A stretch of 41,278 bases of DNA from a virus (Duplodnaviria > Heunggongvirae > Uroviricota > Caudoviricetes), in the IMG/VR virus record IMGVR_UViG_3300014682_000025, one strand, 5' to 3'. Both the position numbers and the translations under genes were made by a program. Positions 3,308 through 41,278 of the stretch are shown here, piece by piece (within the stretch, counting starts at the first letter, position 1; each line of letters begins with the position of its first letter). A model generated the notes under the pieces. The model did no database searches, was not told the DNA's origin, and saw only the letters and a list, made by a program, of their open reading frames with translations.

Positions 3308-3883
3308 CTACGGCAGTGCTGGCCATTCAATATCCTGTGCAGTTGACGTATCAACACGGTTCAGCAATACCCGATACTTTTTCCATGCTTCCAGCAACGA
3401 GATTTCTTCCTCCGTTGCAATTTCCAGATCTGCAGCATCCTGAAGCGGCGCAATATGCTCACTGGCTACCTGCATCAGGTTGTTTTTTGTTTCTTCCGCC
3501 TCCCGGATCCGGAACAGTTTTTCTGCTTCCGTATCCTTCACCCAGGCTGTGCCGTTCCACTTCTGAAACTCCCCTTCCGGGGATAACCAGGTGACATTTT
3601 CCGGTAATGGGCCAAGTTCAGAAATAAATAACGCGTCGCCGGAAGCCACGTCATAGACGGTTTTACCCCGATGATCTTCAACGAGATGCCACGATGCCTC
3701 ATCACTGTTGAAAACAGCCACGAAGCCAGCCGGAATATCTGGCGGTGCAATATAGGAACTGTTTGCTGGCAGACCTGTATGAGGCGGAATATATGCGTCA
3801 CCTTCACCAATAAATTCATTAGTTCCTGCCAGCAGATTATAAATTTTTATGGTCCGTGGTTGTTCACTCATTCTGAATGCCAT
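3308..3883 (-). CDS. tfa: Tail fibre assembly protein Tfa, 191 aa
   Basis: N-terminus [24 protein letters not shown] matches lambda Tfa; start overlaps stf stop (ATGA). Confidence 0.85.
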
Positions 3884-34440: not shown

Positions 34441-34692
34441 TTATTCTTCTGCAAAAGCTGAAAAGCCTGCTTTTATTCCGATCTCTTTCAGTGCCTGTAA
34501 TGAAGTGACAAACTCACCTTCGCGCAAGATAAATCCGTCTGTCACTCGACCATCCACAAAATTAATTAACGCAGCCCCATTCTTTCGCAAACACATAATG
34601 CGGTAATGACTAACAAGATTTCCATTTTCAACGCACACAGCATAGAGGCCATCTTCACAAAAAATTTTACGCAGTTCTTCGATGTTCATCAT
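34441..34692 (-). CDS. rem: Rem-like small prophage protein, 83 aa
   Basis: MMNIEELRKIFCEDGLYAV...; position before hokD as in Qin. Confidence 0.6.
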   Translation of the reverse strand: MMNIEELRKIFCEDGLYAVCVENGNLVSHYRIMCLRKNGAALINFVDGRVTDGFILREGEFVTSLQALKEIGIKAGFSAFAEE

Positions 34693-34908: not shown

Positions 34909-35064
34909 TTACTCCTCAGGTTCGTAAGCTGTGAAGACAGCGACCTCCGTCTGGCCGGTTCGGATTCGTACCTCGCAGAGGTCTTTCCTCGTTACCAGTG
35001 CCGTCACTATGACGGTTAAACAGATGACGATCAGGGCGATTAACATCGCCTTTTGCTGCTTCAT
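34909..35064 (-). CDS. hokD: Hok-family type I toxin (51 aa; MKQQKAMLIALIVICLTVIVTALVTRKDLCEVRIRTGQTEVAVFTAYEPEE)
   Basis: Canonical Hok peptide; track ORF 34909-35121 extends upstream in frame. Confidence 0.85.
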   Translation of the reverse strand: MKQQKAMLIALIVICLTVIVTALVTRKDLCEVRIRTGQTEVAVFTAYEPEE

Positions 35065-35728
35065 AGCCTGCTTCTCCTTGCCTTTCGGCACGTAAGAGGC
35101 TAACCTACATATGTCTAGCATGAAATTGGCCTCAGATTAATGTTAAGCGTCTTGCAGGACGCGTAATGTTAACTGGGGCTTTTCTCTATCTGCCGTTGGT
35201 GTTCATGCCTGAGGCAGATAGCCTCAAGCACCCGCAGCAATTCTACTTAACTCCCGTCACCTCGCCAATATAAAATCAATCAGAAAGGCGATCCGTAAGA
35301 ACAACAGCAAGACAATAAATTGCCATTACAGCCGCAATAGCTAGCGCACATTTGAGAACCAGCACGACAACCTCCTGTATTGGATATACACCTGCCCTGA
35401 TAAATATGAGGCTGTCTCGTCAGTGCTTCAATACAACTATTGGGTATAGTTTCTGTGATTTTGTTCTGTAGAAATGGAACACAACAACCAGTCACCACCA
35501 ACTCTTCTTTAAATACGCCAAGTCCGACGTAAGCTAACCTTCTAGTCCGCTTTGAGCGAAAGGCGAACACTGGCAATTAGCCCGTAACTATTGAATATAT
35601 TACTAATGACCCTGTTATCGGCACAAATATTTCAGAAGACATAAAAATTACTTATTAATAGAACCAATAAGTATTAACTGAATAAAAAACCTTAAGGCAT
35701 CATCTAAATCTTATATTGCACTTTAACA

Positions 35729-39230: not shown

Positions 39231-39678
39231 TTGCTTTTTCTATAAGTTCGTCAGTTTCACGATCCACTACGGCAGGATCAGCAAAAAGCAGTCCGGACTC
39301 CACCACATCGCCATATTCTTTGTTTAACCCGGCGATCATGTACGTGATGCTTTTTCCGTCACTAATTTCACGATACAACCTGAAATCATTAATCCGGATA
39401 GCCTCCATAATTGCAGGCACTAGCGCCGTGAACTTTTCACGCTTATCCCTGGTGTCGATAGCCTTCCAGCGTTCGAATATCTTCACTCGATTAACGCCAA
39501 GCGCTCGCTGATCAACCGCGCCACCTTCATCTGTGACACGCTGAACATCGATGTTCGGGCGCTCTTTCAAAGCCCAGAATGCTTCAGTGATTAATATCGT
39601 CGCCTGCTCCTGTGTCATTCCTGGTCGACATATCCAGGCATCCAGAGCCTCACGAGCCTGTTCAGGAGTGATTTTCAT
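39157..39678 (-). CDS. Hypothetical early-region protein at the cII/YdaT position, 173 aa
   Basis: Track ORF; overlaps dicC 3-prime end so true start is probably internal. Confidence 0.45.
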   Translation of the reverse strand: MKITPEQAREALDAWICRPGMTQEQATILITEAFWALKERPNIDVQRVTDEGGAVDQRALGVNRVKIFERWKAIDTRDKREKFTALVPAIMEAIRINDFRLYREISDGKSITYMIAGLNKEYGDVVESGLLFADPAVVDRETDELIEKAIAFKLAYRQQYQQKAGWNYEPSFC

Positions 39679-39892
39679 TGTTCAACCGCCCCGCCCGCTT
39701 CGTCTTACGATATTCGTCATAAACTTTGGGATCATACTGAAGCTCCCCGCCAGATGCCTCCTGTAGACGCATCGCGCGACCTTCAGGAACCAGTATCCCC
39801 CAAGCAGCAACACTTGCCAGTCTCACTCCTGCGGCATTGGCAAGCTTTGTTTTGCTGCCAAAAAAAGTAATTGCGTCAACTTTAAGCATCAA
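39662..39892 (-). CDS. dicC: Cro-like regulator DicC, 76 aa
   Basis: Divergent from dicA; sequence recognised as DicC. Confidence 0.8.
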   Translation of the reverse strand: MMLKVDAITFFGSKTKLANAAGVRLASVAAWGILVPEGRAMRLQEASGGELQYDPKVYDEYRKTKRAGRLNNENHS

Positions 39893-39901
39893 AGCCCCCT
39901 C

Positions 39902-39921
39902 TTGTTAGACTTTTCTAACGT
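39902..39921. promoter_or_regulatory. Operator-like dyad TTGTTAGA-CTTT-TCTAACg in the dicC-dicA intergenic region
   Basis: Read from sequence; the same 8-bp arm recurs at 40413-40432. Confidence 0.5.
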
Positions 39922-39969
39922 TATTGTGCGCGGGATACCTAAGTCAAGAAAAATTAGAATTACCTAACT

Positions 39970-40377
39970 ATGGATACAAGAACCCTAGGCCAGCGAGTTC
40001 TGGCGCGACGAAAAGAATTACGCTTAACACAACGAGAAGCTGCGCGCCTCGCTGGAGTTGCTCACGTCACAATTTCACAATGGGAAAGAGACGAAACCCA
40101 GCCAGTCGGAAAACGATTGTTTGCTTTAGCGGATGCTCTGAAGTGCTCACCTACATGGCTAATGTTTGGTGACGAAGACAAGGCACCAGTGCCTGCACAA
40201 GAACTTCATGTGGAAACAGAGCTAACTCCCAACCACAAAGAATTGATCGAATTATTCGATGCTCTTCCATCTTCCGAGCAGGAAGCCTTGCTGTCTGAAA
40301 TGCGCGCAAGAGTAGAAAACTTCAACAAACTCTTCGAAGAAATGCTTAAAGCGCGTAAAAATAAATCAATAAAATAA
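39970..40377 (+). CDS. dicA: XRE-family HTH repressor DicA, 135 aa
   Basis: HTH (LTQREAARLAGVAHVTISQWE); divergent from dicC. Confidence 0.9.
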   Translation: MDTRTLGQRVLARRKELRLTQREAARLAGVAHVTISQWERDETQPVGKRLFALADALKCSPTWLMFGDEDKAPVPAQELHVETELTPNHKELIELFDALPSSEQEALLSEMRARVENFNKLFEEMLKARKNKSIK

Positions 40378-40412
40378 CATTCTTTTCAAGTGATTAGTTG
40401 CGCCCATTCTTT

Positions 40413-40432
40413 TTGTTAGATCAGTCTAACAA
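40413..40432. promoter_or_regulatory. Perfect dyad TTGTTAGA-TCAG-TCTAACAA between dicA and ydfA (candidate DicA operator at the dicB-operon promoter)
   Basis: Read from sequence. Confidence 0.55.
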
Positions 40433-40545
40433 AAAACACTTGCCTCTCATGTTAGGTTATTCTAAATTACTTTCCATCAAGACACCGCACGGTGTTCTCA
40501 GCAAACAGTTCCGCTACCCCGGCGTTAAGGGGAAATGAGGTCAGC

Positions 40546-40701
40546 ATGGATACTATCGATCTTGGCAACAGCGAATCTCTGGTATGTGGCGTGTTCCCCA
40601 ACCAGGACGGCACGTTCACCGCGATGACGTATACCAAAAGCAAAACGTTTAAAACCGAAAATGGTGCCCGTCGCTGGCTGGAAAGAAACTCAGGTGAGTG
40701 A
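40546..40701 (+). CDS. ydfA: YdfA-like small protein, 51 aa (MDTIDLGNSESLVCGVF...)
   Basis: Internal ATG at 40546 with GAGG upstream. Confidence 0.75.
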   Translation: MDTIDLGNSESLVCGVFPNQDGTFTAMTYTKSKTFKTENGARRWLERNSGE

Positions 40702-40702
40702 T

Positions 40703-41278
40703 ATGGATTTCGACACAATCATGAAAAAGGCTTACGAAGAATACTTCGAAGGCCTTGCCGAAGGCGAAGAAGCTCTCAGCTTCAGTGAGTTTAAACAGGC
40801 ACTCAGAATAAGAATGTGCTCTCACAATGACGCGGAGCACAAATATGAGAAGCAAAATCAGACCGCAGAAAATTTTGTTCTGGAACCCGGAGAAACGCTT
40901 TTCAAAATTCCCGTTACGTGCCCCATTTGCGGTTTTACATCAGAAGAACTTGACGACTCCTGTAACAATCAGGAAACAACCAAGTATGTCGAAGATGATA
41001 CCGAGTGCGCACGAAGAACGATTATATCCACGAGTCCAAACTCCAGGACCAATAAATCTCACTTTGAGAGGGTGATTAATCCACTCCCCCAAACCAATAA
41101 AAAAGATGCCGGAGGACAAAAAACCCAATGGAACAACGGGATATCTGTCAAAAAAAGACGTTCCATTAAAGACAAACAACGCAGCGCCAACAACTGTAAG
41201 CGCTTTATACCAGTAATCAATTTTCATGTTCTTAAGCGGATTTATTGGTGGTTGCGACATTGCTTAATGAATCCTTAA
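40703..41278 (+). CDS. YdfB/YdfC-like protein, 191 aa, reaching the window end
   Basis: ATG at 40703 (MDFDTIMKKAYEEYFEG) with GGTGA upstream; CPICG zinc-ribbon-like motif; stop at 41276-41278. Confidence 0.55.
   Translation: MDFDTIMKKAYEEYFEGLAEGEEALSFSEFKQALRIRMCSHNDAEHKYEKQNQTAENFVLEPGETLFKIPVTCPICGFTSEELDDSCNNQETTKYVEDDTECARRTIISTSPNSRTNKSHFERVINPLPQTNKKDAGGQKTQWNNGISVKKRRSIKDKQRSANNCKRFIPVINFHVLKRIYWWLRHCLMNP

Follow-up and report, generated by a model that had tools for sequence, protein, structure and literature searches.

The locus and its prophage setting

The stretch of DNA analysed here (41,278 nucleotides, hereafter the window) is as a whole a fairly complete Qin-like lambdoid prophage, in which genes for tail, head and lysis functions, a Q-like antiterminator, rem, hokD/sok and replication genes precede the immunity region. 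The immunity region is organized around the divergent genes dicC and dicA, with a YdaT/CII-like gene and an O-like replication gene downstream of dicC, and ydfA downstream of dicA (Table 1). A reading of the DNA made from the sequence alone had named dicC, dicA and ydfA correctly, as the three products are a P22_Cro protein, an HTH_3 protein and a YdfA/DUF1391 protein, respectively. The Rfam matches at gathering threshold (an IS009 small RNA, two cspA thermoregulators and sok) are typical Qin cargo, and the same whole-window scan returned no match in the dicC-ydfA region. Beyond ydfA, the ydfB frame (40704-41278, plus strand) passes the K-12 ydfB stop and continues as a 205-aa ORF to the end of the window; near-identical genomes have a ydfB that RefSeq labels truncated. 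The minus strand carries a hydrophobic 106-aa ORF (40940-41260) without a match in Pfam or PHROG, and the interval of about 960 bp between ydfB' and dicB carries no annotation in related genomes.

The 135-aa DicA matches HTH families only in Pfam, with no S24 peptidase or autocleavage domain, and K-12 DicA is without the Ala-Gly cleavage site (PMC10448788). Rem has been reported to relieve DicA repression in K-12 (PMC10448788). The DicA type of E. coli SC492, whose Rem is that of the window, shares 56% identity with the window DicA, and because one Rem thus accompanies two repressor alleles, Rem may target a conserved part of DicA. The C-terminal motif MRARVxNFNKLFEE is kept in the window DicA. 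In addition, C-terminal residues 82-115 (ELIELFDALP...MRARVENFNKLFEE) match a set of Campylobacter concisus loci (L014-L025) at 53-62% identity, which suggests, at the level of sequence, that the C-terminal module of DicA occurs apart from the P22-like HTH domain.

Table 1. Positions of the genes, operator-like sites, putative promoter elements and RNA matches in the window
Feature	Position	Strand	Remarks
Rfam matches: IS009; cspA-type leaders (cspI, cspB region); sok (hokD antitoxin RNA)	3342-3540, 28216-28601, 31112-31504, 35059-35233	all -	
rem antirepressor	34444..34692	-	100% identity to the E. coli SC492 Rem; that genome has a K-12-type DicA
dicC allele	39662..39889	-	Cro-like; P22_Cro family (Pfam)
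Operator A	39902..39921	none	K-12 Oc homologue; 68 bp 5' of dicA ATG; overlaps putative dicC -10/start
Putative dicC -10	39918..39924	-	TAACGT (18-nt spacer) or ATAACG (17); overlaps right arm of operator A; from sequence and K-12 alignment
Putative dicC -35, TTGACT	39942..39947	-	AGTCAA nearly invariant in 13 representative loci
Operator-like site B	39951..39970	none	K-12 Oa homologue; last base is the A of dicA ATG
dicA allele	39970..40377	+	135 aa; CI-like repressor; HTH_3; 56% identity to K-12 DicA
Operator C	40413..40432	none	36 bp past dicA stop; ends 7 bp before -35 of rightward ydfA/dicB promoter
Putative -35 of dicBp-like promoter, TTGCCT	40440..40445	+	Aligned with K-12 TTGACC; TTG invariant in 13 representative loci
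Operator D	40449..40468	none	Starts 3 nt past -35 hexamer; right arm CTAAATT includes -10 TAAATT
Putative -10 of dicBp-like promoter, TAAATT	40463..40468	+	Within operator D
ydfA (DUF1391)	40546..40701	+	First gene of early-left operon under dicBp-like promoter

Dyads on both sides of dicA

It had been proposed from the sequence alone that dyads of the form TTGTTAGA-N4-TCTAACAA lie on both sides of dicA, one imperfect and one perfect, and the letters and a pattern scan agree on this. Site A (TTGTTAGACTTTTCTAACGT) carries two mismatches, both in its last two bases, and site C (TTGTTAGATCAGTCTAACAA) is a perfect 8+4+8 dyad with no mismatch, which widens to 11-bp arms (TTTTTGTTAGA/TCTAACAAAAA) at 40410-40435. 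With up to three mismatches allowed, A and C are the sole matches in the 41,278-bp window; shuffled controls gave a mean of 0.17 matches, and two matches were reached in one of 100 shuffles. The view that there is one dyad per side stands at this stringency but has to be widened, as a repeat finder picked up two weaker copies, site B (AAATTAGAATTACCTAACTA) and site D (ATGTTAGGTTATTCTAAATT), which make two per side. The exact core TTAG-N6-CTAA occurs four times in the window (0.32 expected), always in the dicA flanks and corresponding to sites A to D, a count matched by none of 100 shuffles.

Matches beyond this level become frequent, with 14 four-mismatch sites (over 14 specified bases) found in the window and about 14 estimated from equal base frequencies, so that a four-mismatch site alone is uninformative. 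This abundance is the argument for regarding the palindromes as products of chance, an explanation with a vanishingly small probability when set against a perfect dyad of 16 specified bases, the exclusive clustering at dicA and the conservation of position across genera; the conservation data given below refute it. A third, Om-like operator on either side was looked for in the window, and no copy was found at up to four mismatches or with an 8-base core.

The G at position 39920 within site A (CTAACGT) appears to be a window-specific A-to-G change, by which the second mismatch to the operator arises. At this position the 99.6%-identical locus of E. coli PK8566 and the other retrieved window-type loci read CTAACAT, and loci L004 and L033 read CTAACAG. 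The same G also changes the putative dicC -10.

The extended dyad at 40410-40435 could alternatively act at the level of RNA, as a hairpin that terminates dicA transcription, and an 11-bp stem is indeed present in the predicted RNA structure, 33 bp past the dicA stop. It is very improbable that this is its role, as the stem is almost all A-U, neither strand supplies a U tract after it (the plus strand continues AAAAAACAC), the K-12 orthologue ATGTTAGCTATAGCATACAA is unable to form the stem, changes in the arms among relatives are uncompensated (for example TTGTTCG...CTAACAT), and the same motif is also present in non-transcribed promoter DNA. A terminator scan made no call at this dyad, and an A/U stem without a U tract falls outside the definition of an intrinsic (rho-independent) terminator, that is, a G+C-rich stem followed by a U tract. 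A separate hairpin is found in relatives directly past the dicA stop (window 40375-40405; L085, L007, L121, L002), and in K-12-type and L121-type loci, where a T run follows it, it is probably the dicA terminator, judging from its sequence. Between K-12-type alleles, changes in the stem compensate one another (GATAACAT...GAGTTATC versus GATAACGCA...TGCGTTATC), and some of these stems look like everted operator half-sites (CTAACA...TGTTAG). The window's own hairpin at this place is weak or degenerate.

Promoters around the sites

A generic sigma-70 scan called no promoter in 39600-40800, the dicBp-like promoter scoring 8 of 12 matches, and the hexamers in Table 1 have therefore been placed by homology and conservation. 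The putative dicC -35 is homologous to the -35 derived here for K-12 dicCp, for which the -10 and the start site were mapped by 5'RACE (PMC3441716). Site B overlaps a candidate dicA -10 (TAGAAT, 39955-39960), and part of its conservation could be due to the dicA promoter and start codon. The dicA gene is without a Shine-Dalgarno sequence; a good -10-like hexamer, which reads TAGAAT in the window and TAGCAT in K-12, ends 9 nt 5' of the ATG, and the 13 representative loci all have CTAAC(T/G)ATG at the dicA start. It may be that dicA is transcribed with little or no leader, as is lambda cI from PRM. The ydfA leader (40470-40545) is 90-98% identical to that of K-12 up to the cassette boundary discussed below and contains a small hairpin (CACCGCACGGTG), its overall fold being no better than shuffled (z = 0.23).

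Correspondence with the operators of K-12 Qin

The dyad has a published counterpart in the Qin prophage of K-12, where Yun et al. (PMC3441716) described the operator Oc (TTGTTAGTCATAACTAACAA) with the motif TTGTTAG-N6-CTAACAA. Oc overlaps the -10 of the dicC promoter, and DicA bound there represses dicC and activates dicA; the DicA-dependent repression via Oc is lost upon deletion of dicA, and one A-to-C change in isolated Oc abolishes it in vivo (PMC3441716). Site A of the window aligns to Oc column for column. Site B aligns to the dicA-adjacent K-12 site GATTTAGCATTAGCTAACTA, presumably Oa, site C to ATGTTAGCTATAGCATACAA, which is the first of two operator-like sites 5' of K-12 ydfA (the dicBp region), and site D to ATGTTAGTCATGGCTAATCT. 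At the latter two, K-12 TTGACC-N17-TAATCT aligns with TTGCCT-N17-TAAATT of the window, such that sites C and D bracket and overlap the hexamer pair as in K-12.

In K-12 both intergenic regions have been described as holding operators analogous to lambda OR and OL (Ragunathan and Vanderpool, PMC10448788), three operators per region being stated (PMC10448788). K-12 Om and Oa were assigned by sequence alone, and Oa alone showed no DicA binding in vivo (Yun et al., PMC3441716). On the dicBp side, deletion of dicA derepresses the promoter 22-fold and deletion of dicC does not (PMC10448788), and the Reg-Seq authors rated the curated DicA site at dicB as low-evidence, with its location unknown. On these comparisons the identity of the dyad with the published DicA operator is supported, and the earlier proposal of one repressor, DicA, acting over both sides fits the established model of the locus.

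The corresponding proposal that DicA is the user of the sites needs to be shared out between two proteins: the dyad is the published DicA operator, and DicC, as a Cro-like protein, very probably acts at these sites too. A 2024 preprint on K-12 DicC ChIP-seq inferred one site to either side of dicA, with the motif TT(A/C/T)G...C(G/A/T)AA and with the dic locus as the strongest signal, and found that DicC represses dicA 48- to 84-fold (PMC11430063).

Conservation of the sites across genera

Relatives of DicA were gathered by protein retrieval from E. ruysiae, E. albertii, Citrobacter, Buttiauxella, Enterobacter, Pantoea and Erwinia, and 13 representative loci, from Escherichia, Citrobacter, Buttiauxella and viral contigs, encode a DicA that is 50-100% identical to that of the window. 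Throughout these 13, site A starts 68-69 bp and site B 19 bp before the dicA ATG, site C starts 35-47 bp past the dicA stop, and site D starts 33-36 bp past C; in the representatives checked by hand, D starts 3 nt past the -35 and the spacer of the dicBp-like promoter is constant at 17 nt. All 13 loci share TTGTTAG and CTAAC in site A, and the six intervening bases differ. Further conserved islands are the cores of C and D, the -35 TTG, and AGTCAA at the minus-strand dicC -35. The right side of D reads CTAAnnT in every lineage, and its departure from the consensus can be understood because CTAACAA cannot give the final T of a -10 (TAnnnT).

A scan of IMG/VR for the exact motif returned 120 loci, 43 of which adjoin a DicA-like gene, at a distance of 39-62 bp in all 43. 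The remaining 77, which have neither an HTH nor a DicC-like gene next to them, come from AT-rich contigs (median G+C content 36%); chance would be expected to produce such matches in a very large collection. The viral loci were chosen for one perfect site each, and their other three sites, as well as the loci ascertained by protein, are unbiased. In 164 kb of related enterobacterial DNA around the related genes, matches to the core and matches with up to two mismatches occur only within the dicA flanks.

The protein likely to read the sites

The N-terminal 70 residues of DicA match the DNA-binding domain of the P22 C2 repressor (E = 1e-18; PDB 1ADR, 2R1J, 3JXB). The C2 dimer binds an 18-bp dyad with contacts at positions 2-7 and 12-17, the central four bp being uncontacted (PMC4267663). 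When these contacts are mapped on the 20-bp DicA dyad, the contacted block corresponds to positions 3-8 (GTTAGA), and the central four bases vary freely in window-type sites; the parsing as 8+4+8, first made from the letters of the window, therefore fits the C2 structural family.

The bases at positions 8 and 13 of the dyad follow the recognition helix of the repressor. In loci with the helix AHVTISQWE, which comprise the window and Citrobacter types and a third viral lineage, these positions are R..Y in 35 of 44 distinct sites. The helix SHVSVSQWE, that of the K-12 type and its relatives, goes with Y..R in 31 of 31 sites, set in a YYATRR spacer. Related DicA proteins from Enterobacter, Pantoea and Erwinia keep the recognition helix of the window combined with a P22-like helix 2 (SQAALGK), and their homologous positions carry dyads of the type CCCTTAGG-N4-CCTAAG. 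The loci in question (L008-L010, from Enterobacter hormaechei, Pantoea stewartii and Erwinia sp.) encode DicA relatives of 65-68% identity, have dyads such as CCCTTAGGTTTTCCTAAGAG, and place their PL-like operators about 90-140 bp past the stop, behind a G+C-rich terminator. The matching of operator bases to the recognition helix argues for a reader of the sites that the cassette itself encodes; the co-variation involves few lineages and perhaps a single ancestral split.

A host factor could also be the main binder, as YjdC has shown ChIP-qPCR enrichment at the dic locus, with a reported role at the dicC operator region, and CnuK9E/H-NS antagonizes DicA at Oc (PMC3441716). We regard this as hardly credible, as the operator sequence co-varies with the repressor of the same swapped cassette, the motif is confined to the dicA flanks, and host factors do not explain the lineage-specific operators in Enterobacter, Pantoea and Erwinia. 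YjdC and H-NS/Cnu may instead modulate the switch.

A further question is which of the two cassette proteins is concerned. That the sites are essentially DicC sites, with DicA acting elsewhere or indirectly, would accord with the membership of DicC in the Cro-like P22_Cro family and with the K-12 ChIP-seq, in which the strongest signal falls here, with a site on each side and a palindromic TTNG...CNAA (PMC11430063). It is nevertheless unlikely, since repression through isolated Oc needs dicA and is abolished by one base change (PMC3441716), dicBp responds to the loss of dicA and not of dicC (PMC10448788), and positions 8/13 track the DicA helix cleanly; the helix-turn-helix of DicC varies and gives no equally clean split by operator class. 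Operators shared between CI and Cro proteins are the norm in lambdoid phages, so that the assignment to DicC is a complement to the assignment to DicA and not a true rival.

A model for the switch

It is very likely, on the sequence comparisons above, that the dyads are operators of a Qin-type lambdoid immunity switch working along the following lines. From the geometry of the sites and from K-12 genetics, read across to a DicA that is 56% identical to its K-12 counterpart, we infer how the sites would be occupied, would cooperate and would be preferred by one protein or the other. A DicA dimer would bind the 20-bp sites (TTGTTAGA-N4-TCTAACAA) by its P22-C2-like helix-turn-helix, probably without contacting the four central bp. 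The centre of site A falls close to +1 of the putative leftward promoter, and DicA bound there would occlude RNA polymerase, silencing dicC, the cII-like ydaT and the O-like replication gene, and, by analogy with K-12 Oc, would stimulate dicA. Across the gene, site D lies in the spacer and the putative -10, where bound DicA would directly occlude transcription of ydfA-...-dicF-dicB; site C, whose centre is about 52 bp 5' of the predicted start and which lies 36 bp 5' of D, is a probable high-affinity anchor that would help to fill D.

Site B occupies an OR3-like position, from which DicC, or DicA in excess, could shut off dicA, and the use of the same sites by DicC and DicA would result in a bistable switch. 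Such a role for B would fit the repression of dicA by DicC but is in tension with the finding that K-12 Oa does not bind DicA, and the occupancy of site B by DicA alone is uncertain.

Relationship to known immunity systems

The closest relative is the K-12 Qin prophage, which has the same motif, the same gene order (ydaT/ydfX-dicC <-> dicA -> ydfA), the same positions of the operators relative to dicA and to the -35/-10 hexamers, the same chromosomal neighbourhood on the rspB side, and an identical Rem. The Oc-matching dyad, its overlap with the putative dicC -10, the dicA-ydfA operator cluster and the flanking DicA and DicC genes are all features of the Qin type. Differences lie in the perfect dyad, which is at Oc in K-12 but on the dicBp side in the window, and in positions 8/13, which are Y..R within YYATRR in K-12 but A..T in the window; of the K-12 Om, no counterpart is detectable in the window. 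Identity to K-12 Qin is 90-100% on either side of an interval from about 39790 to about 40470; at the start of this interval, in the middle of dicC, it falls from 98-100% to 32-80% per 40-bp block, and it recovers at the -10 of the ydfA promoter. Within the interval lie the 5' half of dicC, dicA, and the operators on both sides of dicA, those at dicBp included. The pattern is that of a classical swapped immunity cassette.

Similarities to P22 include the N-terminal domain homologous to that of C2, dyads with four non-conserved central bp, and a divergent repressor/cro pair with a second operator cluster at a PL-like promoter; however, the half-site of the window is GTTAGA, whereas that of P22 is TTTAAG. 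In both P22 and lambda there are three closely spaced operators per side, and the window has two recognizable sites per side, 36 and 49 bp apart. The window thus has the C2-like domain and dyad of the lambda/P22 type, and neither tripartite operators nor a cleavable repressor. The logic of the lambda CI/Cro system at OR and OL is the same, with shared operators in a divergent and an early-left cluster, a repressed cro and a self-activated repressor, but the lambda operators are unrelated in sequence, the window has fewer of them, and its induction would proceed via the Rem antirepressor and not by autocleavage. In this respect the Gifsy-type GfoR/GfhR repressors, which are short, non-cleavable and displaced by a small antirepressor, offer a functional analogy from the literature (PMC10448788).

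The allele is common in E. coli, as at least 80% of the region 39650-40720 is found in 565 of 5,426 complete genomes. No cultured phage in the phage collection carries at least 80% of it, the best match being a fragment of 'Escherichia phage Rac' with 89% identity over 65%.

The window carries an allelic copy of an already known lambdoid immunity switch, with operators that keep the published arms, and it differs from K-12 only in the side that holds the perfect copy, in positions 8/13 and the spacer, and in the G at 39920. One intriguing possibility, which we put forward tentatively and with some doubt, is that the window carries a second Qin immunity specificity, in which the same outer 7-bp arms are used, discrimination is achieved by positions 8/13, the innermost contacted base pair, together with AHVTISQ versus SHVSVSQ, and one Rem serves both types. 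If the two types cross-bind instead, Qin-like prophages that share a host would come under cross-regulation. These findings leave the accepted view of a CI/Cro-like bistable switch as it was. Their value is one of annotation, in that a common Qin-type immunity allele now has its operators and promoters assigned, the footprint gives base-level positions for the two dicBp operators that Reg-Seq had left without a location in K-12, and an operator base and helix residues are suggested that may tell the two alleles apart.
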